Positions 2,017 to 55,843 of a DNA stretch of 60,892 bases are shown one piece after another. Numbering within the stretch: the stretch's first letter is position 1; each line of letters begins with the position of its first letter. Made by a program: the position numbers and the translations under genes. The stretch comes from a virus. The notes beneath the pieces were generated by a model. The model had not been told where the DNA came from and did no database searches. It saw only the letters and a program-made list of their open reading frames with translations. Location: positions 1 through 60,892 of the IMG/VR virus record IMGVR_UViG_3300047160_014297. One strand, 5' to 3'.

Positions 2017-3501
2017 ATGGCGTTATTTGGCGGGGTGACAATGCCGGGGAGGCCTGACCCTGAGAACGTCAGGAAGTTGGATCTGTTACCTGTCCCGTTA
2101 ACGATGCGGATGGAACGGGTCGGGTTCGCCATCGACATACCGTACCTCCATGAATTGGAGCTGCAGTTGGACCGCGAGATGAAAACGTTACGCGAGGAAA
2201 TCTGTAGTTACATTCCCGAGGAGAAATTGGACGAGTTTATTGGGAGGTCGAAACTCGATGACGATGATTACCTGCCGATGAACGTCAATTCAAGGGATCA
2301 GTTGTCGGTGCTGTTGTTTGACGTGCTGGGGGTGGGGTCGGGCCGGAAGTTGAAGATGACCAAGTCCGGCACCAGGGTCAGTACAGGCAAGAAGCAACTG
2401 GAATCGTTGAAACGCGGTAGTAGGGTGGTTCAAGCAAGTTTGGACTACGCGGAGAGATTCAAATTAAAGAACACGTACGCGGTTAAAATGCCGCAGGCGG
2501 CGAAACTCCACCCACGAGGTAACGATTGTCCGGTTTGTGAGTTGAGTCACGTAGAGTCTACGTTACGTGTCCATACCACTCTGTTGGACACACGTACAGA
2601 CACAGGCAGGTACGCCAGTAAAAATCCCAACCTCCAGAATTTGCCAGTGCGTACGGCACTTGGCAGGGCTGTACGTGCAGGATTCGTGGCAAGTCCGGGC
2701 AAGCTTCTGGTATCTAGTGATTACAGTCAGGAAGAGATGCGTATTGGTGCTCATTATAGTCAGGACCCGGCCCTGATGGAGATCTTTCGGAAAGGTTTGG
2801 ACCCACACCTCGTGACAGCAATGAAGGTGTTCAAATTGACAGACGCCGACATACCGTCCAAAAAGGATGAATCAGCGTGCAACGAGTTCAAACTCAGTTA
2901 CAGGGACCCCAGTCGGCACTTGAACTTCGGCATATTTTACGGGTTGTCACCGATGGGGCTGGCGGATCAGGTGGCGGTAACCTACGCTACCGCGGGTAGA
3001 GAGTTGCCCGACGAGATTAACGAAGAGTGGGCCGAAAAAGTGATCGAGGATTGGTACGACGCGTATGAAGGTGTCAAAACTTACATCGAGCAACAACATT
3101 ATCGTGCAAGACGCTATGGGATTGTGTGGACCCTTTTCGGAAGAGTACGTCGGGTGCCTGAGACTCGTTCTGTACATTCGAGAGTACACGCAGCCGGACT
3201 ACGACAGTCTGGCAATACTCCGATCCAGGGGACTGGCGCCGACATTATGCGACTCACCATGGGGGCCATGGCCGCCCATCCAGAGATTGCTCAGTTACAG
3301 GATTCAGGGGTACACGTGGAACCAGTGCTCACGATCCACGATGATTTGATCTACGAGGTGGACGAGGATTACGCGTCGATGGTGGGGATGATTCTACAGG
3401 AGGTGGAGAGGGAATTGTTGAGGGACAAGGACACGGGAGAGTACTTGTTTAGGGTTCCGTTAGAGGCGGATGCGAAAATCATGACGAGGTGGCAAAAGTA
3501 A
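2017..3501 (+). CDS. DNA polymerase A, polymerase (palm/fingers/thumb) piece
   Basis: Motif A is SSDYSQEEMRI, motif B is RHLNFGIFYGLS, motif C is IHDDLIYEV, and RVHTT..DTGRYASKNPNLQNLP is also present. It starts 2 nt after the TAG of the exonuclease ORF, in a different frame. Confidence 0.92.
   Translation: MALFGGVTMPGRPDPENVRKLDLLPVPLTMRMERVGFAIDIPYLHELELQLDREMKTLREEICSYIPEEKLDEFIGRSKLDDDDYLPMNVNSRDQLSVLLFDVLGVGSGRKLKMTKSGTRVSTGKKQLESLKRGSRVVQASLDYAERFKLKNTYAVKMPQAAKLHPRGNDCPVCELSHVESTLRVHTTLLDTRTDTGRYASKNPNLQNLPVRTALGRAVRAGFVASPGKLLVSSDYSQEEMRIGAHYSQDPALMEIFRKGLDPHLVTAMKVFKLTDADIPSKKDESACNEFKLSYRDPSRHLNFGIFYGLSPMGLADQVAVTYATAGRELPDEINEEWAEKVIEDWYDAYEGVKTYIEQQHYRARRYGIVWTLFGRVRRVPETRSVHSRVHAAGLRQSGNTPIQGTGADIMRLTMGAMAAHPEIAQLQDSGVHVEPVLTIHDDLIYEVDEDYASMVGMILQEVERELLRDKDTGEYLFRVPLEADAKIMTRWQK
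2550..2562. repeat. Palindrome copy CGTAGAGTCTACG (inside the polymerase gene, read as VEST)
   Basis: Read directly. The extended form is cACGTAGAGTCTACGTtacgtg. Confidence 0.95.
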
Positions 3502-3986
3502 TGGACATCGAGATCTGGAGTGAGAAACATGGACCATGCCGAGTGTGGCTGGCACTACGTTTGAAGGCACTTAAAAGTAAGTGGCCACACTTGAAGTTTC
3601 AGTCCGCACCTTTCACTCAGGCGCCGACGTCGGGTAGTTACCCGGTTTACGTGTCCTATCTGGTGGCGCCGTTCGTGTACGAATCCGGGTCGGGCGAGTA
3701 CCTACGACGTGACATGAGTGACGCCAGGGTGCCAATCATGATGACCAAGGACGAAATGAGCGGCGGCCGGAAGCTGGCGATTTATGAACAACGGAAACTG
3801 GAAGCGGTACACGCACTGTTTGACATGATCGAAACGAACAAGATACCACGTGGTGGAGATAGGTGGTCAGAGGCAACGTACTGGGGAACATTGGCGGATC
3901 TGTTTCCCGACAACACAGAGCAATTTCCCAATAAAAAGATAGAAAGGCGGACAAATGGCGAAATCAGAACCGAAACCGAAAACTGA
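3501..3986 (+). CDS. Hypothetical protein
   Basis: ATG overlaps the polymerase stop (TAATG). A GTG at 3489 is an alternative start. Confidence 0.6.
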   Translation: MDIEIWSEKHGPCRVWLALRLKALKSKWPHLKFQSAPFTQAPTSGSYPVYVSYLVAPFVYESGSGEYLRRDMSDARVPIMMTKDEMSGGRKLAIYEQRKLEAVHALFDMIETNKIPRGGDRWSEATYWGTLADLFPDNTEQFPNKKIERRTNGEIRTETEN

Positions 3987-4386
3987 AAGAAAGAATCTAC
4001 CGGACGTGCTGGATTGTCTGGAAGATTCCAAGGATGACATGCAACGGGCGATCCGCTGTTTGGAACGTGCCCACCAGATCAAACTGATACTGGGTAGTGA
4101 ACGGGACAAACGAACAGGTAAACCCGAGTATGGCGACAAAAACTACGGGTTACTTGCGGAGCTGGAAGATCTGAAAGACGAGTTGAAAATGATTCAGGTC
4201 GCTAACGATTTGGAAGGGTTGAGGCACGGCCGGTTAGGGTCGGCCAGTATCGAGATGGACGGCAGACAGTATTTAGATCCGAAGTTGTTGATGGAAGCCG
4301 GAGTGACCGCCGCACAGATCGTCAAAGGGACCAAGCAAGGGGATAGCTATTATCAGACGACGCTATGGGAGATCAAGTCGGCCTAA
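3955..4386 (+). CDS. Hypothetical protein (charged, coiled-coil-like)
   Basis: 143-aa ORF and the last gene of the plus arm. Its stop overlaps the convergent stop of the tailspike gene. Confidence 0.6.
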   Translation: MAKSEPKPKTERKNLPDVLDCLEDSKDDMQRAIRCLERAHQIKLILGSERDKRTGKPEYGDKNYGLLAELEDLKDELKMIQVANDLEGLRHGRLGSASIEMDGRQYLDPKLLMEAGVTAAQIVKGTKQGDSYYQTTLWEIKSA

Positions 4387-11678: not shown

Positions 11679-12221
11679 TCAGATGAGCGCACCGGCCAAG
11701 TCACTACCGAGTGACGAGCCGAAGTTGGACAGGAAGTTCGACTGGAACGAATGGCCCAAGTCCTGGTTGCGACCCGCAAGGGCAAGGTTGGCCGCGTTGG
11801 TGGCGGCGCTCAACCCTTGGCCGGTGAGTTGGTTGCCGATGTTGGCAGTGGTAGAGGCGACTTGACCGGCGTTTTGGGCGGCAGTGGAGCGTGCACCACC
11901 GATTAAACCGGCCAACGCTTTGATTTGTTCGATAGGGAGTTCGGCGAGGGTGGAGGTCTTGCCGCCACCGCGGGCCTGATCGCCGATCATCGAGCGGACT
12001 TGATTGAATTGTTGGGAGATCACGTCGGCCTGGGGTTGGATCACGTCCATCAGGGATTTGGTGTCACCCGAAAGCAGGGATTTGAAGTAATCGTAGACCG
12101 GTTGGAGTTCACCGACTCCTTTGGTGGTGGTGTCGCGACCTTGGGTGTACTGTTCGGTACCTGCCTGTTTTAATAGATTGGCGTTGTAGTTTAAGATCGG
12201 GTCGTGTCGATAATCCGGCAT
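11679..12221 (-). CDS. Hypothetical virion protein
   Basis: 180-aa ORF with GGAG upstream. It is preceded by the palindrome and half-site array at 12235-12270. Confidence 0.7.
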   Translation of the reverse strand: MPDYRHDPILNYNANLLKQAGTEQYTQGRDTTTKGVGELQPVYDYFKSLLSGDTKSLMDVIQPQADVISQQFNQVRSMIGDQARGGGKTSTLAELPIEQIKALAGLIGGARSTAAQNAGQVASTTANIGNQLTGQGLSAATNAANLALAGRNQDLGHSFQSNFLSNFGSSLGSDLAGALI

Positions 12222-12235: not shown

Positions 12236-12248
12236 CGTAGAGTCTACG
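12236..12248. repeat. Palindrome copy CGTAGAGTCTACG (intergenic, 14 nt upstream of the ATG of 11679..12221)
   Basis: Read directly. The 15-bp palindrome ACGTAGAGTCTACGT spans 12235-12249. Confidence 0.95.
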
Positions 12249-12270
12249 TCAGTCTACGTCAGTCTACGTC
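12241..12270. repeat. Tandem repeat, 3 x 10 bp (AGTCTACGTC), extending the right half-site of the palindrome
   Basis: agtctacgtc agtctacgtc agtctacgtc fills the intergenic spacer between 12269..13021 and 11679..12221. Confidence 0.95.
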
Positions 12271-13021
12271 ATCGTCTGAAGTACCGCAAAACTTCTAAAT
12301 ACTGGACAGGGTTGTCCGGTAGTGAGACAAACCCTGTCGATAAACCATGGACGTGCGTGTGGGCCGCAACGATGGTGCCGGTACCGGCCATAACTTCAAC
12401 GGAGGCGGAGTCCACGTTCGAGTTGCCGCCAACGTTCGGTTGGGTGGCCGGTATCACCACACCCGAATAAGAGTTGGTGGAGCGGTGAAACGTCGTGCGG
12501 GCCGCTCCGACCGAGGTTTCGTCGGCCGTCGTGAACGCAGTGACGGCAAGATTGGAGGTCACATCGTTCAGGTAATCCGTAGCAGACCCGTCACAGAGTT
12601 GGTAACCCACCCCTAGCGCGTGGACCGAATCGACGATGTAGCCGCCCTGACCGTCCGCTATATGGAAGAACTTGCCGTCCCAATACACGAGATGGTAGTA
12701 GTCGGCGACAAGAAAGAATGCTCCGATGTCAGCTGAACCGAGGTTGCGGGCCACGATATCGACACGGTTCTGGACGATGATCGTGCCGGGCGACTGGAGA
12801 CCTAAGATTGTAGGTAGAGACGACGGTGTTGCCGTCAGCGCACCCGATTGCTGGAGCTGCTGGACGATGCTTTCGGTAACCGTCTGGGGGACGGAGGTGA
12901 TCTTTTGCGAAGTGGTGTCCAGGGCCGATCGTAAACTGACAATCTCGCGGTACATTTCGTTGATGTAGTCGCGGGCGACCGGGTCGATCTTGCCGTCGAT
13001 CGAGTTGGGCGGTCTTAACAT
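12269..13021 (-). CDS. Tail-collar-domain fibre protein
   Basis: GYQLCDGSA...AHTHVHG resembles the phage tail collar (microcystin-dependent protein-like) domain. Confidence 0.6.
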   Translation of the reverse strand: MLRPPNSIDGKIDPVARDYINEMYREIVSLRSALDTTSQKITSVPQTVTESIVQQLQQSGALTATPSSLPTILGLQSPGTIIVQNRVDIVARNLGSADIGAFFLVADYYHLVYWDGKFFHIADGQGGYIVDSVHALGVGYQLCDGSATDYLNDVTSNLAVTAFTTADETSVGAARTTFHRSTNSYSGVVIPATQPNVGGNSNVDSASVEVMAGTGTIVAAHTHVHGLSTGFVSLPDNPVQYLEVLRYFRR

Positions 13022-24184: not shown

Positions 24185-24197
24185 CGTAGAGTCTACG
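24185..24197. repeat. Palindrome copy CGTAGAGTCTACG (intergenic, 37 nt upstream of the ATG of 23935..24147)
   Basis: Read directly. Confidence 0.95.
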
Positions 24198-25479: not shown

Positions 25480-25484
25480 TGCCC

Positions 25485-34474: not shown

Positions 34475-34700
34475 CGGTAATCTCACGAAACGAGAATGCA
34501 GGTTTAATATACGCGTCGAAGTACTGTTTGGGCTGTACGGCAGAGTACAGAGTCGACCAGACACGAGAGGGGACGGGTTCACGGGAAACGTAGCGGCGGC
34601 CGTTGACGAACTCCAACGTTAGCGTGCCGGACAGTGGGTCGTAGCGGCCGGACTGGAGGTTGGAGGACTGGAATACCTTGAAGTTGGGATCGCTACTCAT
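34461..34700 (-). CDS. KTSC-domain protein
   Basis: L.SGRYDPLSGTLTLEFVNGRRYVSREPVPSRVWSTLYSAVQPKQYFDAYIK fits the KTSC pattern. Confidence 0.55.
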   Translation of the reverse strand: MSSDPNFKVFQSSNLQSGRYDPLSGTLTLEFVNGRRYVSREPVPSRVWSTLYSAVQPKQYFDAYIKPAFSFREITDANS

Positions 34701-42228: not shown

Positions 42229-42559
42229 TTCGTTTTTGGCGGTACGCTTCGTATTCCAGTCGCGCGTCACGCCGGTCCCGCCACCAGTCGGCAGACAACT
42301 CGGCATGCCGTATCTTCAAATGTAGCGGGCATCGCAACTTACCATCGGACGGTTTGCCACAATCCACACAAGAATGTCGGCGAGTCCCTGGTCGTTTGAA
42401 CTGGATGCCCGCCGACCGTAACGAGTACCGTACCGACGAGTAGGAACATTTCACTCGTCTTCCGCGGAGTAACCGGACAATTTTAGAGATGGAGAAACCA
42501 GCAAGGTAGAGTTCGATTGCTTGCTGGCGGGATTGTCCGGTTACGATAGGCGTGGCCAC
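42176..42559 (-). CDS. HTH DNA-binding protein; first gene of the minus-strand arm after the divergent promoter
   Basis: SRQQAIELYLAGFSISKIVRLL is an HTH. A Cys cluster CVDCG...CPLH is also present. GTG 42559 has AGGAGA 12 nt upstream. The track start at 42688 would run through the promoter region. Confidence 0.55.
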   Translation of the reverse strand: MATPIVTGQSRQQAIELYLAGFSISKIVRLLRGRRVKCSYSSVRYSLRSAGIQFKRPGTRRHSCVDCGKPSDGKLRCPLHLKIRHAELSADWWRDRRDARLEYEAYRQKRNDQAHRREARARVGQES

Positions 42560-42590
42560 GCGATTACAATTTCTCCTGGATTGAAATCGA

Positions 42591-42619
42591 TTGAAATCAT
42601 CCGAACAATACTTTAGAAT
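42591..42619 (+). promoter_or_regulatory. Sigma70-like promoter TTGAAA-17 nt-TAGAAT, 8 nt upstream of ATG 42628
   Basis: Read directly. The -35 box is the second copy of a ttgaaatcga tandem duplication. Confidence 0.5.
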
Positions 42620-42634
42620 AGTTTTCCATGTCAA
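42605..42634 (-). promoter_or_regulatory. Divergent sigma70-like promoter TTGACA-18 nt-TATTGT for the HTH/glycosyltransferase/late arm
   Basis: Reverse complement of 42629-42634 is TTGACA and of 42605-42610 is TATTGT. It overlaps the plus-strand promoter. Confidence 0.45.
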
Positions 42635-43239
42635 AACATTTCTGGTACATGGCTCTGATGTGGTTATCGCTGTCGGACCCGTCGGCACTGAAAATGGCCA
42701 AGACCTTATGGGGACAGGTTGCCATGATCGGCCAGCGGCGCGATATGACGCAATCGAACTGGACGAAACTGGTGGGGTACATCAGTCCAGGATGTGTGAA
42801 CGATTTCACCGTCGTTGGTAGTGGGTTCAATACCTGGGACGCTGCGTTCGCCGACGCCCAGTTACACCCGGTGATGGCGGACGGACCCTACCGCGGCCAC
42901 ATTACAGTGACGATCAACGTCGCCGACCCGGTCTCGATATCCACAGTCCAAACCACCATCGATACCAATCCACCATTGACGGTGGCTACGTTTCCGCCGA
43001 ACCCCCCGACGGTCCAAACCGCCATTAAATGGGACTTCGACACCTCATTATTGGTAGACGGTACGCATGTATTGTGCGCCCAGGTGGCGAACTCGGCGAA
43101 TCTCGTAGGGAGGACGTACTCGGGCTATCTATTTTCCACCAATCAGTCCACCGGTCGGGATGGCGGATCGATCGGACTACCGTCGATGGTGCCACCGGAT
43201 ATCGAACTCCCCCCTCAACCGATCGTCCAGAAGTGGTAG
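42628..43239 (+). CDS. Hypothetical protein (beta-rich or Ig-like C-terminal part)
   Basis: ATG lies 8 nt downstream of a TTGAAA-17-TAGAAT promoter, so the mRNA may be leaderless. The ORF ends at TAG 43237-43239, in frame with the next ORF. Confidence 0.55.
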   Translation: MSKHFWYMALMWLSLSDPSALKMAKTLWGQVAMIGQRRDMTQSNWTKLVGYISPGCVNDFTVVGSGFNTWDAAFADAQLHPVMADGPYRGHITVTINVADPVSISTVQTTIDTNPPLTVATFPPNPPTVQTAIKWDFDTSLLVDGTHVLCAQVANSANLVGRTYSGYLFSTNQSTGRDGGSIGLPSMVPPDIELPPQPIVQKW

Positions 43240-43359
43240 TTGATGCCTGTTCTAGTGTGGCTTATCCGTTATCTTGTATCGTTGCGCCAGCGAAAGAAAC
43301 CCCAAGCGACCCATATTGTGTTCTTGGATACGTCAACCCCGAAACCAGGAGATATTCTG

Positions 43360-43686
43360 ATGTCATTTACACTGCATGAAGGAAACACGATCCGCTTAAC
43401 CGCCCAAGGTCAGGACGATAACGGTATCAACCGTGACCTCGACATGTCGAAACAACTGGACTGGGCTGCCAGTAGTGAAGGTATTGTCGCGGTCTCGCCG
43501 GTAGCGGGTACATTGTTCGCCGACCTGTCGTACGTTGGTGCCGGGACAGTCACGATCACGGCAACCGGCGTCAATCTGGCAGGCACGACGGTGACCGGTA
43601 CGATCGGCGGTACAACGGTGGCGAAACCGGTACCTCCGGCCACTCACATTGTGGTTACGGCCGGTCCGGAAGTCCCGATACCTTAA
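43360..43686 (+). CDS. Bacterial Ig-like (Big_2-type) domain protein
   Basis: IRLTAQGQDDNG...LDWAASSEGIVAVSP.G....VGAGTVTITATG is Big_2-like. AGGAGA lies 7 nt upstream of ATG 43360. The open frame extends back to 43240, in frame with 42628..43239. Confidence 0.6.
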   Translation: MSFTLHEGNTIRLTAQGQDDNGINRDLDMSKQLDWAASSEGIVAVSPVAGTLFADLSYVGAGTVTITATGVNLAGTTVTGTIGGTTVAKPVPPATHIVVTAGPEVPIP

Positions 43687-43724
43687 AATTACCGTAAAAT
43701 CCCATAGAAAGGAGGAGCAACTGT

Positions 43725-43913
43725 ATGTTTGATCCGTCAAGTGTCGAGTTTCAACTGGTCTCGTCGATGCTGTTTTCAGGTATGGTCGCCGGAGCGGCAA
43801 GTGTGAAGAATCCGGCCAGTATCCGTAAGGCGCTGGCTACGCTGGAAACCATCAAAACCGATATTGCAGCAGCCGAGGCGGTACTCCAATCGAACCTCGG
43901 CCCGACACCCTGA
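43725..43913 (+). CDS. Small hydrophobic protein
   Basis: AAAGGAGG lies upstream. It is 62 aa with one hydrophobic segment, and converges on the lysis genes. Confidence 0.6.
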   Translation: MFDPSSVEFQLVSSMLFSGMVAGAASVKNPASIRKALATLETIKTDIAAAEAVLQSNLGPTP

Positions 43914-43928
43914 TCCGCCATCTACTGC

Positions 43929-44207
43929 CTACGGTTTGGTTTCGACGGTACCGGACGGGGTCTGAACCAACGGCTTGGTCTCCGGCTTGGTCTCCGTCCT
44001 GGTGTCGCTCACCACATCCTGTTTAATCAACGCCAGCAACGCGCCGAGCGTCATGGCGGCCTGCGTCTGTGCCCATATAATAAACGTCATGTCGTCGCCG
44101 CCCGCATCCGACTTATGGATCAAATGGACACATAAGAGGACGGTCGCGACGAACAGGCCGGAAAGTAAGAGTTTATCGAAGTGTTTCGACCCCATCAGGG
44201 ACTTCAT
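43929..44207 (-). CDS. Holin-like membrane protein (two transmembrane segments)
   Basis: LLLSGLFVATVLLCVHLI and AAMTLGALLALI are followed by a charged tail. The gene overlaps the endolysin 3' end. Confidence 0.5.
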   Translation of the reverse strand: MKSLMGSKHFDKLLLSGLFVATVLLCVHLIHKSDAGGDDMTFIIWAQTQAAMTLGALLALIKQDVVSDTRTETKPETKPLVQTPSGTVETKP

Positions 44208-44767: not shown

Positions 44768-44805
44768 ACTATAGCGGTAACTACTATAGTGGTAATCACT
44801 ATAGT
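44768..44805. repeat. About 2.5 tandem copies of a 15-bp unit, ACTATAG(C/T)GGTAA(C/T)N, giving three ACTATAG(T) boxes exactly 15 bp apart
   Basis: gACTATAGcggtaact ACTATAGTggtaatc ACTATAGTacg. ACTATAGT is itself a palindrome. Confidence 0.85.
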
Positions 44806-44843
44806 ACGCACACGAGGCACCGTCAAAAGGTAGGCTCGCTACT

Positions 44844-44887: not shown

Positions 44888-44900
44888 CGTAGACACTACG
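44888..44900. repeat. One-mismatch palindrome copy CGTAGACACTACG (intergenic control region)
   Basis: Read directly. It shares the flank ...CTACGTTACCGG with the copy at 55480. Confidence 0.7.
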
Positions 44901-45058: not shown

Positions 45059-45108
45059 ATGGAAAGTTTCCATGGTCGTGCAGGTTGCAGCATGGAAAGA
45101 TTCCATGG
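45059..45108. promoter_or_regulatory. Two copies of a 17-bp dyad, ATGGAAAG(T/A)TTCCATGG, 33 bp apart (operator-like), upstream of the first early gene
   Basis: 45059-45075 is atggaaagtttccatgg and 45092-45108 is atggaaagattccatgg. Each has inverted arms ATGGAA(A)/(T)TTCCAT. Confidence 0.65.
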
Positions 45109-47465: not shown

Positions 47466-47702
47466 ATGAGCACAATAACTTACGAATGTCCAAAGTGTAA
47501 AGAACAGGTTGCAGGACCAGTGAATTACTGCGGCATGCTCAAATGTGTGTGGTGTCATACGGCGTTTGAAGCACCAGAGCAACTATTTCAACCAGAACGG
47601 ACAGAAAGTAGAAGAGTTATGACAACAGCGAGTCTCAACCTACAACTGCCTGTGGTCTGCACTCGCGGGACCGATAACGTTACGGTACCCAACCGAAAAT
47701 AG
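47466..47702 (+). CDS. Zinc-ribbon protein
   Basis: CPKC...CVWC is present. GGAGAG is upstream. The gene is followed by a terminator. Confidence 0.55.
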   Translation: MSTITYECPKCKEQVAGPVNYCGMLKCVWCHTAFEAPEQLFQPERTESRRVMTTASLNLQLPVVCTRGTDNVTVPNRK

Positions 47703-47737
47703 GCCGAAATCGGCCCGTACAACCGATTAGTAGGCCA

Positions 47738-47792
47738 CGCCTACACTGAATAGGTTCCAATGGAATCGAACGCAGTGTAGGCGTTTTTGTTT
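47738..47792 (+). terminator. Rho-independent terminator after 47466..47702
   Basis: CGCCTACACTG - 24 nt (with the inner palindrome ttccaatggaa) - CAGTGTAGGCG is followed by TTTTTGTTTG. A small GGCCGA/TCGGCC hairpin sits at 47702-47715. Confidence 0.55.
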
Positions 47793-47826
47793 GCGGAAAG
47801 GTCAGGCGGAGAGGAGCAACCAAGGG

Positions 47827-47979
47827 ATGAGAGAAACCAAGTCGGAACACTTGAAGGAGCACAGTACTTGCGCCGTAAGTGGGTGCCGAAACGAGGCTAC
47901 AATAGTAATGGTTACAGAGCAAGTACAGACCGAAATGTGCCTCGATTGTGTCCTGAACGTAGAGTCTACGGGCGCATAA
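47827..47979 (+). CDS. Small Cys-rich protein
   Basis: GGAGAGGAG lies upstream of ATG 47827. The ORF contains a palindrome copy, read as VEST. Confidence 0.45.
   Translation: MRETKSEHLKEHSTCAVSGCRNEATIVMVTEQVQTEMCLDCVLNVESTGA
47958..47970. repeat. Palindrome copy CGTAGAGTCTACG (inside 47827..47979, read as VEST)
   Basis: Read directly. Confidence 0.95.
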
Positions 47980-48116
47980 AAAAGTAATAAGTCATTGGTA
48001 GGGGTACCGGGCAACTTTTTCTGACCCGGAGGTCGGATTTGGCCCAAAAACGAGGTGATTCGTAAAGATTTTATGGGTCAAATTTCCGGGTGCAAACTAT
48101 ATAAATTTCCGTCCAA

Positions 48117-48145
48117 TTAACCTTTTTCTCAAAAAGTAGTAGAAT
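48117..48145 (+). promoter_or_regulatory. Sigma70-like promoter TTAACC-17 nt-TAGAAT upstream of the 48.3-50.9 kb gene block
   Basis: Read directly in an AT-rich intergenic region (47.98-48.31 kb). Confidence 0.45.
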
Positions 48146-48309
48146 ATATATATACTCTGATACGGTTTGGAAAGTAGATTTGGTTGGAGGGAAATTTATA
48201 TAGTTTGGGCGACAAACGGCGGTTTGAATCGACCGGAAATCGGTGAGGTCGAGTCGGCGGTATCCGATTTCGAACAGAAACAGGCCGCCATAACGAAAGG
48301 AGAGACGGA

Positions 48310-48729
48310 ATGGGTAAAAAGACGGTCTACGATGTCGGCGCGTCCTGGGGCCATTTAAAGGTGGTTTTTTCCGGCCGTGCCGAACGGTATGTTCCGGGTC
48401 CAGGCGGGGGTGAGATGTCGAACGATGAGTTCATCCAGGTCGAGTGTGACTGTGAAGGGAAAATGAAGGGGCCAGGAACGATGAAGATTTGGCTGGACGA
48501 CTTTCCGGGAAAAAAGAAGGTGCTGGATTGCGGCTGCGGGATATCGAACATGGACGGCGCCACCATTTTAATCAGTGCGACGGTGCCGACAGAGACGAGG
48601 GTTGCTTTGAAAGAGTACAGCAGGAAGGAAGGGATTAGTTTTAGCAGGGCGATAGTGGAATTAGTGAGACTTGCGTTGAAAGGAGACAGAGCAAGTGATT
48701 CAAATAAGACCAAAAGTAATCGAAGGTAG
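48310..48729 (+). CDS. Ribbon-helix-helix (CopG/Arc-like) DNA-binding protein with a Cys-rich N-terminal domain
   Basis: The C-terminus TVPTETRVALKEYSRKEGISFSRAIVELVRLAL fits an RHH fold. AAAGGAGAG is upstream. Confidence 0.55.
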   Translation: MGKKTVYDVGASWGHLKVVFSGRAERYVPGPGGGEMSNDEFIQVECDCEGKMKGPGTMKIWLDDFPGKKKVLDCGCGISNMDGATILISATVPTETRVALKEYSRKEGISFSRAIVELVRLALKGDRASDSNKTKSNRR

Positions 48730-48939: not shown

Positions 48940-49236
48940 ATGGCGGACATTATTCGAGTGATCCGGATTGTAGAGATTGTCGGTGAACGGTCGAGAGTCG
49001 AGAAGCAAGTTGAAAGGAGTCTGCACGGAACGAGGCGGATCAGTGATCAGTTGGCGATACATGCGGAGACGCTAGGGGTGGTGCCGGAGTCGGCGATGTC
49101 GGACAGTAACGGAGAGTTGCTGGAAAAGATTGCCGAAGTACTGACTGACTATAAAGAGGGGTCTTACGTGACAGTGGTCGACGACATCAAAAGCCTGATG
49201 CGGAGTTGGAAGGGATGGGAGGGACATGATGCCTAA
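48940..49236 (+). CDS. Hypothetical protein
   Basis: 98-aa ORF with GGAGGA upstream. Confidence 0.6.
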   Translation: MADIIRVIRIVEIVGERSRVEKQVERSLHGTRRISDQLAIHAETLGVVPESAMSDSNGELLEKIAEVLTDYKEGSYVTVVDDIKSLMRSWKGWEGHDA

Positions 49237-50887
49237 ACTGGGGTTTGCAAATATTGGCGGAAACGATGAACCAGTACCAGAAGTCGGTGGGGCTGTCGGT
49301 ACCGACGAACAACAGACAATCTGGAAGGTCGGTTGCAATCCGGATGGGCCGCACATGATTGTCAATGCCGTGGCAGGGTCAGGTAAGACGTTTACCGGGG
49401 TGGAACTCTGTAAACGGTTACCGGCGACAAGTAAGGTCGGGTTCGTCGCGTTTAATAAGCATATCGCCACTGAATTGAAGTCGAAATTGCAGGGTCACTC
49501 GAACGTCCAGGCCATGACTTACCATTCGCTTGGGTTGCAAGCCATCAAAAGTAAGCTGGGGTTTGTCGACGTGGATCAGTACCGGCTGGATGGAATTTTA
49601 GACAAGTGGAGCTGGCCCAAAGATTGGGAAGATTCCAAAATACGGTACGTGGGCGCCCGGACGCGCCGGATGGTGTCGGTTGCCAAACAGTACGGTGCAT
49701 GGTCGCGTGAGGAGTTGGAACGGCTGGTCGACCATCACGATATTGATTTGAACGGGATTGAGGAGGATGTGCTGACGCTGGTACCGGCCGTATTGAAGAA
49801 GTGTCTGGAGTTTGGGAAAAGAAAGACGGTCGATTTTGACGACATGGTCTGGTTGCCGAAGGAATTGAAATTGAAGATGGCCGGGTTTGACGTGCTGTTG
49901 ATCGATGAGGCACAGGACACCAATTTGAGTCAACAGTGGTTGGCGTTGAACAGTGCCAAGCGGTTGGTCGTGATCGGTGACCCGCACCAAGCGATTTACG
50001 GGTTCCGCGGTTCTGATAGTAGGTCGATGGCACGGTTGAAAGAAGAGTTGGGCAAGTCCGATCGTGGCGTCATTGAACTGGGGTTGAGCTTCACTCGGCG
50101 GTGTCCCAAGTTACACGTCAAGATGGCACAGAAGATTGTGCCTCAGATTCAAGCGTTACCGGAAGCGCCGGAAGGTGTGGTGAGGGTAGAGTCTACCGAA
50201 CAGGCGCTAGAAGGGATGAGGGCGGGCGACTTGGTGATTTGTCGGGTCAATGCGCCGTTACTGGAGACGGCGTACTCGTTACTGAAGATGGGTAAAAGGG
50301 CAGTGGTCAGAGGCGGGGATATCGGCGAGGGGTTGAAACGGTTGATTGAACAGGCGTGTAAGAGGGTCGCAATGACAGATAGTAAGCAACAGTACTTGGC
50401 GGAGATGTTGACCGCGGCCGAAATGATTACCAGTGAACAGGTACAGAAGCTGGAGAAAAAGGGTAAGAGCGAAAACAAGATTGCGTCCGCACAAGACAGG
50501 TTGAGTTGTCTTGAAGTGCTGGCGCTCGATCACACGTCGGTGGATCAGTTGCTGATTACCATTAACAAGTTGTTCAGCGACTTTGATGACGATGGTAAGC
50601 CCGTACAAGCGATCGTACTGGGGACTGTTCATAGAACAAAGGGTTTGGAAGGGTACCGGGTGTACGTACTGGAACCGGCGAAAATTCCCCATCCCATGGC
50701 GAAGAAGGAATGGGAACGGGAGCAGGAATTGAATTTGGCTTACGTTGCCTGTACTAGATCGAAATGGGGCGAGGTTACCGAAACAGGGATTGGGTTCACT
50801 GGTAACAAGAAAACCTACAGCGGCGAGTTGATATTTGTCGGTGGCGAGTGTCCACGATGTTACGGGAAACTACACCATCACCGATAA
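49226..50887 (+). CDS. Superfamily 1 DNA helicase (UvrD/PcrA/Rep-like)
   Basis: Helicase motifs are AVAGSGKTF (I), VLLIDEAQDT (II), VIGDPHQAIYGFRG (III) and VHRTKGLEG (VI). Confidence 0.88.
   Translation: MMPKLGFANIGGNDEPVPEVGGAVGTDEQQTIWKVGCNPDGPHMIVNAVAGSGKTFTGVELCKRLPATSKVGFVAFNKHIATELKSKLQGHSNVQAMTYHSLGLQAIKSKLGFVDVDQYRLDGILDKWSWPKDWEDSKIRYVGARTRRMVSVAKQYGAWSREELERLVDHHDIDLNGIEEDVLTLVPAVLKKCLEFGKRKTVDFDDMVWLPKELKLKMAGFDVLLIDEAQDTNLSQQWLALNSAKRLVVIGDPHQAIYGFRGSDSRSMARLKEELGKSDRGVIELGLSFTRRCPKLHVKMAQKIVPQIQALPEAPEGVVRVESTEQALEGMRAGDLVICRVNAPLLETAYSLLKMGKRAVVRGGDIGEGLKRLIEQACKRVAMTDSKQQYLAEMLTAAEMITSEQVQKLEKKGKSENKIASAQDRLSCLEVLALDHTSVDQLLITINKLFSDFDDDGKPVQAIVLGTVHRTKGLEGYRVYVLEPAKIPHPMAKKEWEREQELNLAYVACTRSKWGEVTETGIGFTGNKKTYSGELIFVGGECPRCYGKLHHHR
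50185..50197. repeat. Palindrome copy GGTAGAGTCTACC (inside the SF1 helicase gene, read as VEST)
   Basis: Read directly. The outer base pair differs, but the sequence is still a perfect palindrome. Confidence 0.9.
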
Positions 50888-51515: not shown

Positions 51516-51767
51516 ATGGTCAAACATGCCAAGAAGAGGGTGGGGTTTCACAATAAACGGGGTGGTCGGAGGAGTAGTAAATGGCCGGACGTTAACTTGA
51601 CGGTAGTGGCGGAGGAAGTCGGGATATCGCCCAGTCATTTGAGCAATATTATGTCGGGGGTTTGTAAGCCAAGCTGGGAGGTGGGGTTGAAACTGGCTGA
51701 GGTGTGGTCACGGGTGGTGAAGCGACAAGTGAAAGCGGAAGATCTGGAACAGGAATTCAAACAATAA
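51516..51767 (+). CDS. HTH (Cro/C1-type) DNA-binding protein
   Basis: LTVVAEEVGISPSHLSNIMSG is an HTH. The ATG lies 8 nt downstream of a TACAAT box. The gene is preceded by iteron arrays. Confidence 0.65.
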   Translation: MVKHAKKRVGFHNKRGGRRSSKWPDVNLTVVAEEVGISPSHLSNIMSGVCKPSWEVGLKLAEVWSRVVKRQVKAEDLEQEFKQ

Positions 51768-51779: not shown

Positions 51780-52757
51780 ATGGGCAAAGCAACAGTAGCA
51801 ACAGAACACAGTCACTCGGGATGGGTGGAGTTGAGACCCAACCAGATTGTAGAGGACCCGGTAACGAACGTCCGGATGTGGTCGGCGTCGGATGACGATT
51901 CGGATTCTATTAAAGAGTTGGCCCAATCGATCGTAGCGGTCGGGCAGATCAACCCGATCGAAGTGCGCTGGAAGATCAACAGTGGTGCGACCGACCCCAG
52001 TGACGGGCAATACGCGATCGTGACGGGGAGGAGACGGTTGGAAGCGATCCGGTCACTCGGCGACGGGTTTATGGTGAAGGCGACGGTGTTGGAGGTTGAC
52101 GACAAGAAGGCCCGTCAGCACGCGTTACAAGAGAACGCCAAACGTAAAGATCCGTCGGCGATGGATAACGCGCAAAATATCGCGGAGGTACGGGAGCGTG
52201 AAGGGTGGAAGGGCGGCAAGAATACCAGTAAGGTGGCCGAGTACTTTGGAATGAGTGTGGCCTGGGTAACGACCCATGAAAAGTTGCTGGGGTTGGACAA
52301 GAGTCAACAGAGTCGGATTCAGAGTAACGGTTGGTCCGCGCAAGCGGCATTTGATCTGATCGGTGTGCAGTACAAAAAACGTGGGGAGGTTCAACAGCGG
52401 GCCGAGGAGATCGCGGACAAGGAAGCGAAAGACAAGGGCAAACCCAGAAGAAGGGTAAAGAGCAGGCACGTCCGGCAGGCGGCACAAGAGACCCAGGCGT
52501 CAAGTAAGCCGAAACAACGGAAGACCCGTGAGGTGGTGGAGTTCTTCGAACGGTTCGACGTGGACGAGTACGGACGGCCGGACGGTGTGGTTCGGCAGTT
52601 TATCGTGTACCTCAATAAGTGGCTGGCCGGTCAAGGTACCGACCGGACATTGACGGAGAAGTTCGACGACATCGCCACGTTTGTACCGAATGGGGTTATC
52701 CCGAAGGTTGCCAGAAAACCCGTTAAAAAGGTTGTGAAGCCCAAACCCAAGAAGTAG
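51780..52757 (+). CDS. ParB-like nuclease/partition-domain protein
   Basis: INPIEVR and IVTGRRRLEAIRSLG form the ParB GxRR box. The C-terminus is basic. Confidence 0.75.
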   Translation: MGKATVATEHSHSGWVELRPNQIVEDPVTNVRMWSASDDDSDSIKELAQSIVAVGQINPIEVRWKINSGATDPSDGQYAIVTGRRRLEAIRSLGDGFMVKATVLEVDDKKARQHALQENAKRKDPSAMDNAQNIAEVREREGWKGGKNTSKVAEYFGMSVAWVTTHEKLLGLDKSQQSRIQSNGWSAQAAFDLIGVQYKKRGEVQQRAEEIADKEAKDKGKPRRRVKSRHVRQAAQETQASSKPKQRKTREVVEFFERFDVDEYGRPDGVVRQFIVYLNKWLAGQGTDRTLTEKFDDIATFVPNGVIPKVARKPVKKVVKPKPKK

Positions 52758-52781: not shown

Positions 52782-54137
52782 TTGGCAACAGGACGGTGGT
52801 ACAGCACGGAGGGCAGGGCATTGGCGGACAACGGCACAGCGCAGGGACAAGCACGCAAAAAACCCAAAAGTAACAAGGTGAGTTTGAGTCAATCGCCGCT
52901 GGCGAGGCCGGAGACGGCCATCCATCAATTGGCGTCAGAGATACAGAAGTATCTGTTTTTGCCGGACCCGACCGCACTGTACGCCACGATGGGGACGGTG
53001 GCGGCCAACATGATTTACGGCAATCCCGTGTGGACGATACTGGTCGGGCCGCCGAGTTGCGGGAAAACGGAAATTCTCGAGATGTTCGTGAATTTACCGA
53101 ACACGAAGGTGGTGTCGGTCATTGAGTCGATTGCGGCGTTACTGTCAGGGAGTAATAAGAGGGATATCGCCAAAGGGGCAACGGGCGGATTGTTGAGGGA
53201 AATAGGTTACGAGGGAATGTTGATCATGACCGATATGGCCGGGATGTTACGACTACCATCGGACCCGCTCGGTAAGGTGCTGGCGGCATTTCGGGACATT
53301 TATGGTGGACGGTGGGTCCGGCCAATCGGTGGTGAAGGAGGCAGGAATCTGGTGTGGGGACCGTTGCACGCACCTCCGCAAGGTGATGAACGGTACGGCA
53401 AGCTGACGTTCTTGGCCGCGGCCACACCGACGATTGACCGGCACCATACCATGAACGCGGAACTGGGCGAGCGGTGGGTCTACTACCGGTATCCGGACGG
53501 CGAAGGGGATGGCGAGACACGGTCAGCGTTAAGAAATAAGAACCCGCAAGAAGCAAGGGAGGAAATGAGGGTACTGATTGCGAACTTCTTCCGGGAGTTG
53601 CCCATGGATTTCGTCCGGATGGCCGAGAAACGAGACTATACGTTGTACGAAGAGATGCGGATTGCGGCCATGGCCAAATTATGTGTCAGGGTCAGGAGTT
53701 TGGTACCCCGTGAAGGGTGGAAACGGGAAGTCGCCGACATGGCGGACAGTGAAAGGCCACAACGATTGGCCACGGTGTTGGGGCAACTGTACCTTGGGTT
53801 GGAAGCGATCGGACTGCCGGAGGGTGAACGGTGGTACGTGGTGGGGAAGATGGCCGTGGATTCGTGTCCGCGGTTGAGGTCGGAGGTTATGAAAGTGTTG
53901 TGGGGTCAGAAGGGACTGGGGCCGGTTGATCTGGTCGATATTGCGTTGGCGTTACGATTGTATCGGTCACAGCCGGTGGTGACTCGCGCGATCGAGGATT
54001 TGGAAATACACGGTATCGTAACGGTTAAGAAGGAGCAGGGCGAGAAAAGTACCGTGGAAATGACCGATGACGCCAGGGATCTGTACGAGAAGGCAGGGTG
54101 GAACGGGATTTACGAAAAGGAAGAGGCGGACTCATGA
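52782..54137 (+). CDS. P-loop NTPase, candidate replicative helicase or loader, with a C-terminal winged-helix-like region
   Basis: Walker A is VGPPSCGKTE and the Walker B-like segment is GMLIMTDMAG. The precise family was not recognised with confidence. Confidence 0.55.
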   Translation: MATGRWYSTEGRALADNGTAQGQARKKPKSNKVSLSQSPLARPETAIHQLASEIQKYLFLPDPTALYATMGTVAANMIYGNPVWTILVGPPSCGKTEILEMFVNLPNTKVVSVIESIAALLSGSNKRDIAKGATGGLLREIGYEGMLIMTDMAGMLRLPSDPLGKVLAAFRDIYGGRWVRPIGGEGGRNLVWGPLHAPPQGDERYGKLTFLAAATPTIDRHHTMNAELGERWVYYRYPDGEGDGETRSALRNKNPQEAREEMRVLIANFFRELPMDFVRMAEKRDYTLYEEMRIAAMAKLCVRVRSLVPREGWKREVADMADSERPQRLATVLGQLYLGLEAIGLPEGERWYVVGKMAVDSCPRLRSEVMKVLWGQKGLGPVDLVDIALALRLYRSQPVVTRAIEDLEIHGIVTVKKEQGEKSTVEMTDDARDLYEKAGWNGIYEKEEADS

Positions 54138-55843
54138 CAGATATGTTGGAGGATGTAGAACCGAAAGATTTGGGTATCGGGTTTCCGACGTTCCGGCAGA
54201 TACAACGTGAAGCGGGTTACCAAGCGATCTACGGTGAGGAACGATTCCAGGGGTTGTGTGCGCCGACCGGGTGCGGCAAGAGCGGGATTGCGGCGTTGGT
54301 ACAGCGAATGACGGGGTGGCGAACTGCGGTATTAACGGCGACGAAAGGACTGCAGGAACAGTACCTCGCCACGCCGCGTGACTTCGATATCGCGGATATA
54401 AGAGGTAAGTCGAACTACGATTGTTACGAGATGAAACGGACCCGGCCCGAGTTGAGGTTGGCCTGTGACGACGGTCAACGGATGGGTTGCTCGTTAAAAG
54501 GGAGGGATGGAGGTTGCCACTATGAAGAAGAACGGAATTCTGCGCGTCGGTCCGATTTTGTGGTGACCAACTACGCGTACTGGTTTGCGGTGAACCGGTT
54601 CAGGCGGTTCGGGCCGGGGTTAGAACTGGTGGACAAAGAGACGGGGGAAGTGCGGAATCCATTTGAGTGCTTGGTGTTGGATGAAGCGCATGCTGCACCG
54701 GACCAACTCTCTAATTTTCTGAATTGTTCCATCAGCGAGAAAGAAATCAACGAGTTGATGGAGATGGCCCGGCCCGAGATCGGTGAGGATGTGGGTGGCT
54801 GGGAGATCGGTGAGGATGTGGGTGGCTGGGCGAAGTGGGCTCAAGGTAGGGTTGCGAAAGTCGAGTCGCTACTTGCGGAGCGACAAGCGGACTTGTTGGT
54901 GACGAGGGCCAAAGCCGTTAGTAGGGACATCGAGATCGTAAGGAAGTTGGAGAAGCTGGTCGAGAAGTTAGGAATGATGTCGACGATGGTCGACAAAGAG
55001 TGGGTCTGTGAGTACAAGGAAGGGACACGATGGGGAAGAGTATGGGAGTTCGATGCGGTATGGCCGGGACGGTACGCCGAGCAGTTCTTGTTTCGAGGCA
55101 TTCCGCGTGTGGTGCTGTTATCAGCTACGCTGCGCCCCAAAACTCTCGGATTGCTTGGCATTCGCAAGGAAGTGTCGAAGTTTACGGAGTGGCTGAAGAT
55201 ATTTCCAGGGCACCGGTGTCCGGTGTATTTTCTGCCACCGACGAAGGAAGGCGGAAAACAGATAAGGATAGATAGGAATACGACCGACGAGGATATGAGG
55301 TTGTGGGTCGAACACATCGATCGGATTATTGATATGAGGACAGACAGGAAAGGGTTGATATGTACGGTGAGTTATCAGAGACAGCAATACTTTCTGGCGA
55401 ATTCGAGGCATCGACGATCGATGCTTGGAAATACTTCAGAGAAGGACTCGGAGTCCAGTTTGGAGGTCTACCGCAGGCACGTAGAGTCTACGTTACCGAC
55501 CATACTGGTGAGCCCAAGTTTCTCTACAGGATGGGACTTTCCGGGAAAATCGTGCGAGTTCATCGTGATTTGCAAGATCGCGTTTCCGGACGGCAGGTCA
55601 AAGGTGATGAAAGCCAGGAAGGAGCGGGATGAAGATTACCCGAATTACATGGCCGCGCTGGACTTGGTTCAAGCGTGCGGAAGGGGTATGCGGTTTGAAG
55701 AGGATCAGTGCGAAGTGTTCGTGACGGATGGGCACTGGACATGGTTTGGACGGAAATGCAGCGGGTTTATGCCGATGGGTTTCTTCAATTCGGTAAGGAA
55801 TTGGAACGGGGCAGGAATGCCGAAACCGCTCGAAAAACTGTGA
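54134..55843 (+). CDS. XPD/DinG/Rad3-like DEAH-box helicase with a 4-Cys (Fe-S) insertion
   Basis: CAPTGCGKS (I) and VLDEAH (II) are present. The four cysteines lie in NYDCYEM...LACDDGQRMGC...GGCHYEEE between motifs I and II. Start is at ATG 54134 with ATGA coupling. Confidence 0.8.
   Translation: MTDMLEDVEPKDLGIGFPTFRQIQREAGYQAIYGEERFQGLCAPTGCGKSGIAALVQRMTGWRTAVLTATKGLQEQYLATPRDFDIADIRGKSNYDCYEMKRTRPELRLACDDGQRMGCSLKGRDGGCHYEEERNSARRSDFVVTNYAYWFAVNRFRRFGPGLELVDKETGEVRNPFECLVLDEAHAAPDQLSNFLNCSISEKEINELMEMARPEIGEDVGGWEIGEDVGGWAKWAQGRVAKVESLLAERQADLLVTRAKAVSRDIEIVRKLEKLVEKLGMMSTMVDKEWVCEYKEGTRWGRVWEFDAVWPGRYAEQFLFRGIPRVVLLSATLRPKTLGLLGIRKEVSKFTEWLKIFPGHRCPVYFLPPTKEGGKQIRIDRNTTDEDMRLWVEHIDRIIDMRTDRKGLICTVSYQRQQYFLANSRHRRSMLGNTSEKDSESSLEVYRRHVESTLPTILVSPSFSTGWDFPGKSCEFIVICKIAFPDGRSKVMKARKERDEDYPNYMAALDLVQACGRGMRFEEDQCEVFVTDGHWTWFGRKCSGFMPMGFFNSVRNWNGAGMPKPLEKL
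55480..55492. repeat. Palindrome copy CGTAGAGTCTACG (inside the XPD/DinG-like gene, read as VEST)
   Basis: Read directly. Confidence 0.95.

Follow-up and report, generated by a model that had tools for sequence, protein, structure and literature searches.

Genome context of the palindromes

The subject of this analysis is a 13-bp palindrome, CGTAGASTCTACG, dispersed in 11 copies along IMGVR_UViG_3300047160_014297, the sequence of an uncultivated phage. The window referred to below is the whole stretch of 60,892 nucleotides. Its first 64 nt are repeated at its end, so that it represents a circular assembly of 60,828 bp and a complete phage genome; this overlap holds none of the 11 palindromes. 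The genome has a G+C content of 54.6%, and 9.1% of it is non-coding. Genes are directed rightward from 1 to 4386 and from 45059 to the end, and leftward from 4383 to 44637. Its products include the large terminase (terL), tail-spike and tail-fibre proteins, an adaptor of the SU10 type, a lysozyme and an HNH endonuclease, and also those of a replication module, namely a split family-A polymerase, two helicases, a Sak4-like ATPase, an ERCC4 nuclease and a ParB protein. Among the open reading frames (ORFs) scanned, neither lysogeny genes (integrase) nor a gene for ParA was found, and the window contains no tRNAs and no Rfam matches.

A megablast search with 12 kb of the genome returned no matches among 50,697 phage records, leaving the phage without a close cultured relative. 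Its terL is 29% identical to the terL of Acidobacteria phages. The nearest metagenomic relatives have terL proteins that are 67–72% identical and a major capsid protein that is 86% identical.

Nine of the 11 copies are exact, one is a symmetric variant (GGTAGAGTCTACC, at 50185) and one carries a single mismatch (CGTAGACACTACG, at 44888), all as described in an earlier note that had been made from the letters of this DNA alone. Five are intergenic. The copy at 12236–12248 lies in a 47-nt gap between two minus-strand genes (12269–13021 and 11679–12221), 14 nt from the start codon of the latter and 1 nt from a GGAG Shine–Dalgarno sequence. It is followed, at 12249–12268, by two added half-sites, so that GTCTACGTCA occurs three times with a 10-bp period and four ACGT cores are spaced 11, 10 and 10 bp apart. 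The copy at 24185–24197 is situated in a 64-nt gap, 37 nt from the start codon of the minus-strand gene 23935–24147, after which comes the adaptor-like gene 22452–23921. That at 29427–29439 is found 38 nt from the start codon of 28345–29388 (minus strand), the scaffold gene of the earlier note, and has the 15-bp form GCGTAGAGTCTACGC, with a symmetric outer G...C pair. The one-mismatch copy (44888–44900) resides in a 420-bp divergent control region, 158 nt upstream of the first rightward ORF, and its outer ACGT cores are intact (ACGTAGACACTACGT). The fifth, at 47958–47970, is located in a gene-poor region of about 600 bp (47703–48309), 339 nt upstream of a gene for a ribbon–helix–helix (RHH)-like protein.

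The remaining six copies lie within genes. One (2550–2562) is inside the DNA polymerase A gene 2017–3501 (plus strand), within a full 15-bp palindrome, ACGTAGAGTCTACGT. Another (34163–34175) is inside 33761–34582 (minus strand), and a third (36915–36927) forms the last four codons, followed by the stop, of 36912–37514 (minus strand), 17 nt upstream of the terL start at 36897. The copy at 40606–40618 is in a TPR-containing gene (39640–41076, minus strand), the symmetric variant (50185–50197) is in a UvrD-like helicase gene (49226–50887, plus strand) and the copy at 55480–55492 is in a helicase gene (54098–55843, plus strand). The earlier note had counted seven copies in coding sequences. Six of these are in supported genes, and the seventh, at 47958, is overlapped only by short ORFs with TTG start codons.

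The palindrome is an all-or-none unit

The genome contains nine exact copies of CGTAGASTCTACG, and not one appeared in 100 dinucleotide-preserving shuffles, a result that bears out the earlier view of the palindrome as non-random. The 11-nt core, GTAGASTCTAC, is present 10 times, and a further copy with one mismatch is found at 44889; in the shuffles, cores with at most one mismatch numbered 0.41 on average, with a maximum of 3. No other palindrome in the genome is statistically exceptional.

The mismatch spectrum of the element is bimodal. Nine copies have no mismatch, one has a single mismatch and one has two, placed symmetrically, and the class with three mismatches is at background level. 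Isolated 7-nt half-sites are not enriched. Taken together, these two results indicate that the full dyad is the unit, and that it is present either entire or not at all. Alignment of the 22 half-sites gives A(14/22) C(20/22) G T A G A(21/22), so the element extends weakly to a 15-bp palindrome, ACGTAGA-S-TCTACGT (ACGTAGASTCTACGT), in which the outer positions are soft. Apart from its centre base the site is perfectly palindromic. Its information content is approximately 23.6 bits, as against the 18–20 bits needed, and a 6-Mb host genome would be expected to hold about 0.18 copies (less than 0.3). A set of sites of some 24 bits, at that expectation per host genome, is therefore effectively exclusive to the phage.

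The flanks of the copies are unrelated to one another. The asymmetric TTAC flank remarked upon previously is real in four to five half-sites, but in three of the copies within genes it is simply the Leu codon that follows the peptide described below. An ACAAGGT motif adjoins two of the sites, and its enrichment is not significant. The centre base does differ with context. Read on the sense strand, it is G in all six copies within genes (giving Glu, never Asp) and C in four of the five intergenic copies (Fisher 5/330 = 0.015), a difference for which none of the models considered here accounts.

Copies inside genes point to selection on DNA

The genes that carry the palindrome are unrelated, encoding the polymerase, two helicases, the TPR protein and two proteins of unknown function. 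In all six, the palindrome is nevertheless read in the same codon phase and orientation, as GTA GAG TCT AC[G/C], which specifies the peptide VEST (in the polymerase gene, xxC GTA GAG TCT ACG). Six VEST peptides were observed in the proteome, where 0.34 would be expected. The codons used for them are always GTA and TCT, although GTA accounts for only 14% of the Val codons of the phage and TCT for 12% of its Ser codons.

Orthologues could be aligned, without gaps, at four of the six sites. At the 50185 position the orthologue in L013, a contig that also encodes a homologue of the ParB protein, has RVVTTQ, and its DNA there, TGTAGTGACTACG (VVTT), represents a precursor with three mismatches. The L013 orthologue has HVATTR at the 55480 position. 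At 34163 the orthologues in relatives have DIDRSL or SIDQRE, and at 40606 the orthologue in the relatives L001 and L033 has DQRQSE. The absence of gaps from these alignments indicates that the sites were made by substitution at tolerant positions and not by insertion. The use of one reading frame, the rare codons and the origin by substitution argue that selection acts on the DNA.

Several other explanations were considered and rejected. A peptide-level cause for VEST is ruled out by the use of one rare codon set in all six copies and by the unrelatedness of the carrier proteins. A mobile palindromic element (REP or MITE-like) is ruled out as well, since flanks are not shared and ancestral codons have been replaced in frame, without insertions or deletions, at the four sites that can be aligned. 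The palindrome is too long for a restriction or methylation site, and it is over-represented, not under-represented.

The sites are thus non-random and all-or-none, and, as described in the next section, they are evenly spaced and enriched in intergenic DNA in a genome that encodes a ParB without a ParA. It is probable that the 11 palindromes are selected binding sites of a phage protein. The earlier note had read the dyad symmetry as the mark of a target for a dimeric DNA-binding protein, with the sites acting as a dispersed operator. That reading is still the best available, and for the protein itself the sequence offers candidates.

Distribution along the genome

Neighbouring copies are 2.2 to 11.9 kb apart, the average density being about one site per 5.5 kb. 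A smallest gap as large as that observed, 2,227 bp, has a probability of 0.006 for 11 random points on a circle, and the coefficient of variation of the gaps (P = 0.02) likewise reveals a spacing more even than random. Five of the 11 copies fall in the 9.1% of the DNA that is non-coding (P = 0.0018). The simplest reading is a need for regularly placed sites, which has been served by the few small intergenic gaps where these are available and by writing into genes elsewhere. Recoding in a single frame, together with regular spacing, argues for a role that is genome-wide and not promoter-specific.

As had been proposed, there is an enrichment just upstream of late-gene modules, where four copies lie 14, 37, 38 and 17 nt from the downstream start codons (for 12236, 24185, 29427 and 36915, respectively) and adjoin Shine–Dalgarno sequences. 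At distances of 14–38 nt these copies are too near the start codons to be upstream activator sites. In promoter and terminator scans, no association was detected between any copy and a sigma-70-like promoter or an intrinsic terminator. The sole promoter overlap, at 29407–29434, is on the wrong strand, with the motif itself serving as the −10 element.

Another possibility is that the palindromes operate at the level of the transcript or transcription unit, either as part of a non-canonical late promoter or as a hairpin in mRNA or single-stranded DNA to which a phage factor would bind, so as to bring about processing, control of translation or antitermination where modules meet. The position of the four copies before the first genes of late modules, at or in the 5′ leader beside the Shine–Dalgarno sequence, would suit such a role, and the late genes have no sigma-70-like promoters in the scans, which leaves the late transcription signals unaccounted for. 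The two deviant copies also spare stem pairing, the one at 50185 by a G...C swap and the one at 44888 by differing only at the loop-closing position, and the centre base depends on context, as noted above. Set against this, the predicted hairpin (6-bp stem, 3-nt loop) is weak, at −3.5 kcal/mol as DNA, and no T-run follows any of the palindromes. A palindrome is directionless, and six copies are inside genes, including early replication genes. The loop-adjacent A–T pair, which cannot pair in the hairpin, is conserved in 10 of the 11 copies, which argues for recognition of the duplex. Scans for a phage RNA polymerase, a sigma factor or a virion polymerase of the N4 type were negative, the proteins of 1,192 and 1,210 aa included, and the lack of Rfam matches is a further point against an RNA element. 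An action on transcripts is accordingly improbable. The late-promoter role suggested in the earlier note is left without support by the lack of an accompanying sigma-70-like promoter, the closeness to Shine–Dalgarno sequence and start codon and the six sites in genes. An N4-type hairpin promoter, in particular, was rejected, there being no match to the RNA polymerase family and the sites being dispersed, half of them inside genes.

The even spacing would also suit priming or packaging entry points, and it could be supposed that the palindrome is a DNA-processing signal: a site of nicking or cleavage (by the HNH endonuclease, for example), one of multiple initiation sites for packaging by terminase, or a recombination or priming site. 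The HNH endonuclease gene (30623–31177) lies between the portal and scaffold genes, one palindrome falls on the 3′ end of the gene immediately before terL, where terS is usually found, and the GC skew, strong and uniform, suggests that the DNA undergoes some asymmetric transaction. A symmetric site, however, would be cut or nicked on both strands, leaving the genome in 11 pieces, and known phage nick and pac sites are asymmetric, with pac sites not being dispersed. An orthologue of the HNH endonuclease is encoded in L006, a relative that lacks the motif, and no HUH or recombinase gene was detected in the phage. A processing signal is, on balance, very unlikely.

No multi-copy set in the other genomes searched

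The earlier note knew of no described element with this sequence, and none of the public genomes searched was found to contain multiple copies. A scan of IMG/VR for ACGTAGASTCTACGT yielded 16 single chance matches and no multi-copy contig. Across one genome from each of 185,579 species, the 15-mer was present at 62 places, always as a single copy and in unrelated taxa, and the stretches fetched around those places contained no second copy of the core.

Conservation in related phages was not observed either. Relatives were identified by terL from IMG/VR and from JGI metagenomes, where they reach at most 72% identity, with none closer in these collections. Both the motif and any analogous palindrome family are absent from the terL neighbourhoods, of about 20 kb each, of 12 IMG/VR and 7 metagenome loci (some of them the same contigs). 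Single-protein queries of IMG/VR with the ParB and helicase genes found no relatives, and the contigs that encode homologues of the ParB protein (L013, L014 and L015) contain no copy of the motif. The motif is therefore not a repeat of the host, and it is not conserved in the lineage either; its absence from the relatives marks the system as young or as an accessory innovation.

These data bear directly on a host-factor explanation, in which the palindrome would be recognised by, for example, a global regulator, nucleoid protein or partition protein of the host, and the phage would have gathered copies of it in order to exploit that protein. With terL 29% identical to that of Acidobacteria phages and no host assigned, a lineage-specific factor can be envisaged, and the 15-mer does occur as a single copy in several Acidobacteriota metagenome-assembled genomes. 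On the other hand, no genome is enriched in it, the 62 occurrences being single and scattered over unrelated taxa, and the relatives of the phage, which presumably grow on related hosts, are without it. A host factor is very unlikely.

Repeats of other kinds were seen in the loci compared. In several relatives an exact 12-mer, different in each, is found three times in a stretch of about 20 kb; its copies face both ways, and their flanks are unrelated: CCTGTGGCTGAA in L001 (62, 5294 and 6599), GAAGCAACTGGA in L006 (8733, 10983 and 12466), CGCCTGGCTCGA in L007 (2382, 3454 and 7682) and CCACGAACCCGC in L009 (3778, 6263 and 13837). A rough estimate puts the expected number of such triples at about 0.03–0.1 per locus. 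The 12-mers may be dispersed motifs of a different type, each particular to its lineage, or they may result from coding bias. A 13-mer present three times in L013 was ruled out as a dispersed motif, since it encodes the Walker A motif GSGKT.

Candidate reader proteins

The candidates put forward previously were RHH, helix–turn–helix (HTH) and zinc-ribbon proteins, a list that omitted the most obvious reader of a palindrome encoded by this genome, a full-length protein of the ParB/KorB/Noc type without a ParA partner (51780–52757, plus strand). In this protein an N-terminal domain of the CTPase type, containing a GRRR box, is followed by a central HTH (SVAWVTTHEKLL) and then by a tail rich in Lys. 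It matches Pfam ParB_N with an E value of 3.9e-8 and TIGR00180 (NCBIfam parB_part) with 70.3 bits, the cut-off being 58.45. The G83-R84-R85-R86 box and E118-N119...R122-K123 (the ENxxRKD motif) are present, and phmmer alignments to solved ParB, Noc and Spo0J structures span residues 40–233, covering the N-terminal domain and the HTH. The predicted model matches two-domain chains of Noc, ParB and KorB (7nfu, 6t1f and 8qa9) with template modelling (TM) scores of 0.57–0.67, normalised to the target; the score is 0.67 for 8qa9, and the root-mean-square deviation for 6t1f is 3.4 Å. The fold-search matches listed are to C-terminally truncated chains or shorter domain constructs. ParB, Noc, KorB and BisD proteins of this architecture load at palindromes of 13–23 bp on their own replicons.

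No ParA was found to accompany it, there being no deviant Walker-A KGGxxK[ST] in any supported gene and no PHROG, Pfam or NCBIfam match, and canonical parS is not present in the genome. That the palindrome-family scan finds ParB sites where they exist is supported by the 114-kb uncultured phage MT835476.1, the nearest ParB match in the annotated collection, in which it recovered three parS-like sites (9121, 11040 and 11096), two of them perfect GTTTCA-NN-TGAAAC and one with 5-bp arms, approximately 5–7 kb from the ParB gene.

The orphan ParB is proposed as the putative reader of the sites, with a likelihood that we would place somewhat short of even. It is ranked first mainly because two unrelated phages, this one and the mycobacteriophage Corndog (see below), pair an orphan ParB with dispersed exact palindromes. 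Several observations weigh against it. A protein search found four homologues, and the recognition helix, AWVTTHEKLL, is invariant among them. L013 encodes a ParB that is 45% identical, with the same helix and the same gene order, and its syntenic replication module of 15.5 kb has neither a copy of the motif nor any other repeated palindrome; if identity of the helix were to imply identity of the site, the ParB would not be the reader. The motif is missing, moreover, from the closest structural relatives of the phage. The C-terminal helices of the model (249–299) have predicted local distance difference test (pLDDT) values of about 52–78, and the linker and tail are below 50. A second palindrome family, TGGAA-N(2-5)-TTCCA, is a candidate for the conserved site of ParB, or for the operator of the small HTH protein described below. 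It occurs 4 times, with 0.26 expected, and once in L013 (TTGGAATTAATTCCAA, at 9986); the copies in the phage are a pair, ATGGAAAGTTTCCAT and ATGGAAAGATTCCAT, 33 bp apart at 45059–45108, at the start of the rightward operon, and a further two to three at 4019, 46826 and 49624. Finally, the direct-repeat half-sites with a 10-bp period at 12249–12268 suit cooperative binding of the RHH type at least equally well. At the positions flanking the helix, the ParB of this phage does differ from its homologues (SVAW as against SPAW, M as against K and S as against R).

Two small regulators have, by contrast, diverged where specificity resides, which adds to the uncertainty of the assignment. One is an XRE-type HTH protein (51516–51767, plus strand), encoded directly upstream of the ParB gene in a pair that is conserved in L013, the only ParB homologue for which a gene context is available. 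Its recognition helix differs from that of the L013 orthologue, and its resemblance to TrbA falls short of significance (E = 0.046). The protein may itself read the sites, or it may act beside ParB as a partner of the KorA/TrbA kind. The other is the RHH-like protein (48310–48729, plus strand), in which a Cys-rich N-terminal part (CDC...CGCG) is joined to a C-terminal beta–alpha–alpha part. A word-indexed search of 5.8 billion proteins found no homologue. Its positional counterpart in L013 (1008–1397) is 24% identical and keeps the layout of CxC...DCGCG followed by beta–alpha–alpha, with a different beta-strand (ISATV as against VSLNL), and the two look like members of a fast-evolving regulator family. 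The RHH call made in the earlier note is plausible and weakly supported: there is no Pfam or NCBIfam match, and the single-sequence model, in which the beta–alpha–alpha segment occupies residues 85–128, has a pLDDT of 43, too poor for a fold search.

In the region that precedes the RHH-like gene, no supported gene is found between 47703 and 48309, and a bidirectional hairpin, GGCCGAAATCGGCC, follows the upstream gene at 47702–47715. An AT-rich, promoter-like stretch at 48117–48145 (TTAACC-17-TAGAAT) contains a near-palindrome, CTTTTTCTCAAAAAG.

Either small regulator might use the palindromes as a dispersed operator or roadblock, binding as a dimer or a dimer of dimers and blocking or timing transcription across the genome in the manner of stoperators. 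The motif and the RHH-like protein are both unique to this genome; the altered beta-strand is what would be expected if specificity had changed, and the XRE helix has altered as well. The motif may be viewed as a pair of ACGT cores at a spacing of 11 bp, with the four cores at 12236 in helical phase, as is typical of cooperative RHH arrays, and the 47958 site is in the non-coding region that precedes the RHH-like gene. Opposed to these are the poorly supported fold and the presence of a different near-palindrome, CTTTTTCTCAAAAAG, over the predicted promoter of that very gene. A promoter-specific repressor would leave the recoding of polymerase and helicase genes and the even spacing unexplained, operators of small repressors usually show graded degeneracy and not an all-or-none distribution, and lysogeny genes were lacking among the ORFs scanned. 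A small regulator as the reader is the main rival to ParB, and we regard it as rather unlikely.

Comparison with known systems

The stoperators of Cluster A mycobacteriophages are asymmetric 13-bp sites bound by a monomeric, two-domain immunity repressor, and they have one orientation relative to transcription, in temperate phages; more than 20 highly conserved copies are found genome-wide, many in short intergenic gaps, and they affect transcription elongation (PMC9283540). The sites described here resemble them in being conserved, dispersed and 13 bp in length. The comparison, drawn in the earlier note, otherwise fails on asymmetry, monomeric binding and temperate life: the present site is palindromic, half of its copies are inside genes, and no integrase or ParA was found among the ORFs scanned. 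In a test for stoperator-like orientation, the only possible cue was the centre base, with G in six of six copies within genes and C in four of five intergenic copies.

A closer parallel is provided by Corndog, a Cluster O mycobacteriophage in which 34 invariant, dispersed 17-bp palindromes, 5′-TGTTCGGNNNCCGAACA, have been without an explained function since 2015 (PMC4351075). Corndog is not temperate, lacks ParA and encodes an orphan ParB-like protein, gp90; a role of the palindromes in transcription initiation was judged unlikely by the authors of that report (PMC4351075). When the palindromes were re-counted for the present study, 27 were found in the right-hand 40 kb (30000–69777). The annotation of gp90 (24425–25933 in that segment) says only 'ParB-like nuclease domain protein'; its alignment to Spo0J takes in both a ParB N-terminal domain and an HTH. 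At its outer bases (TGTT...AACA), the Cluster O palindrome agrees with canonical parS (TGTTNCACGTGAAACA). No paper linking gp90 to the Cluster O repeats was found.

In both phages the inverted arms are invariant and the centre is free, the copies lie in short intergenic gaps and in genes of a genome of about 60–70 kb, and the palindromes are absent elsewhere (from the host and other phages for Corndog and, as a multi-copy set, from the other genomes searched for the present phage). Like Corndog, this phage is not obviously temperate and encodes, with no ParA, an orphan ParB with N-terminal domain and HTH. The geometry and sequence differ, however, with 7-bp arms and a 3-bp spacer in Corndog and 6–7-bp arms and a 1-bp centre here. 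The Corndog repeats are three times more numerous and cluster in one arm, and they are conserved across five sequenced relatives, whereas no sampled relative of the present phage has the motif. Recoding in a single frame and even spacing, on the other hand, have not been reported for Corndog.

The IncP plasmid RK2 carries about 12 copies of its operator OB, with a G or C at the centre. KorB of RK2 loads at this odd-length palindrome (core TTTAGCGGCTAAA) as a clamp that slides and is locked by small HTH partners, and with KorA or TrbA it silences genes at a distance (PMC11790492, PMC13584720). The likeness to the present phage lies in a replicon of about 60 kb, an odd-length palindrome of which some copies are at promoters and some far from any, and a ParB-family protein composed of a CTPase N-terminal domain and a DNA-binding domain, together with a gene for a small HTH partner, here directly upstream of the ParB gene in the pair shared with L013. 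RK2 differs in being a plasmid with a ParA (IncC) and a partition role; the tailed phage has no ParA, its sites are unrelated to the RK2 operators, and the partner is only putative.

Chromosomal parS, the NBS sites of Noc and the bisS sites of BisD are likewise short (14–23 bp), near-exact palindromes, often in coding sequences and numbering from a handful to tens per replicon. They serve as loading sites for ParB-fold clamps that spread over kilobases, and the odd-length bisS palindromes of the integrative and conjugative element ICEclc, situated inside genes, allow BisD to regulate transcription at a distance (PMC12409273). For the phage, such loading is putative. In addition, parS clusters near the origin whereas the present sites are evenly spaced, and the recognition helix of the phage ParB differs from that of canonical ParB. 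In function, the nearest counterparts of the set are OB/parS-type loading sites and the Cluster O repeats; it is not a stoperator system.

A possible mode of action

On the favoured model, a single sequence-specific phage protein with two-fold symmetry would dock or load throughout the genome, and not at promoter-specific operators. The sites would be loading sites of the parS/OB type, with ACGTAGA-S-TCTACGT recognised by a ParB dimer, which would then close as a nucleotide-dependent clamp and slide. At a density of about one per 5.5 kb, such sites might let the clamp occupy the phage chromosome in full and leave the host chromosome free. The outcome could resemble that of KorB, BisD or Noc, namely long-range control of phage transcription, or a marking or organising of phage DNA, and the adjacent small HTH protein may be a KorA/TrbA-like partner.

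In its fullest form the proposal is that a phage of virulent type uses an orphan ParB-CTP clamp as a whole-chromosome system that coats phage DNA only, in which the small HTH protein, perhaps at the ATGGAAAGTTTCCAT pair at 45059–45106, locks the clamp at promoters in the KorA or TrbA manner and so times early and late expression or marks self, and that the same logic applies to the Cluster O palindromes. This version is speculative, and we consider it more doubtful than the assignment of ParB as reader. A link to the ParB-dependent thymine dioxygenases of phages (PMC13229309) was rejected, as those ParBs have no DNA-binding domain and act on NTG or NTC; in this phage, no member of a TET/JBP-type family was found among the proteins scanned against Pfam.

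Were the ParB model correct, gene control by sliding clamps would be extended from plasmids, integrative and conjugative elements and chromosomes (KorB, VirB, BisD and Noc) to tailed phages, a function would be assigned to many orphan 'ParB-like' phage genes, and the unexplained Cluster O palindromes would receive a testable answer in a cultivable system. Whichever protein is the reader, the phage offers an uncommonly clear example of a 13-bp DNA signal written by selection into coding genes, with a precursor visible in an orthologue. The regular spacing is useful for thinking about how genome-wide sets of sites evolve, and a 24-bit site that is absent from host genomes is a possible orthogonal protein–DNA pair.

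Other features of the genome

The main divergent control region contains three ACTATAG repeats with a 15-bp period (44768–44826), which overlap two tandem, leftward, sigma-70-like promoters (TTGACG-17-TATAGT and TTACCA-16-TATAGT). In the same region, GGACAAG occurs four times between 44743 and 44965.

The family-A DNA polymerase is encoded by two adjacent ORFs in different frames, the first (506–2014) ending with a TAG stop codon at 2012–2014 and the second (2017–3501) starting 2 nt later. Either the gene is truly split, or the junction is a site of frameshift or recoding. The accessory genes comprise, besides the HNH endonuclease, a family-2 glycosyltransferase (41284–42306). An ERCC4/HhH nuclease (59119–59901) and a cpYpsA (SLOG) protein (60203–60691) are both common to this phage and L013.

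The GC skew of the plus strand is positive in every 2-kb bin except 42001–44000 (−0.005), with 19,118 G as against 14,149 C. The excess of G on this strand is independent of gene strand, although it is larger where genes are on the plus strand. It suggests unidirectional or otherwise strand-asymmetric replication, and the same G-rich strand bias is present in L013, L014 and L015.

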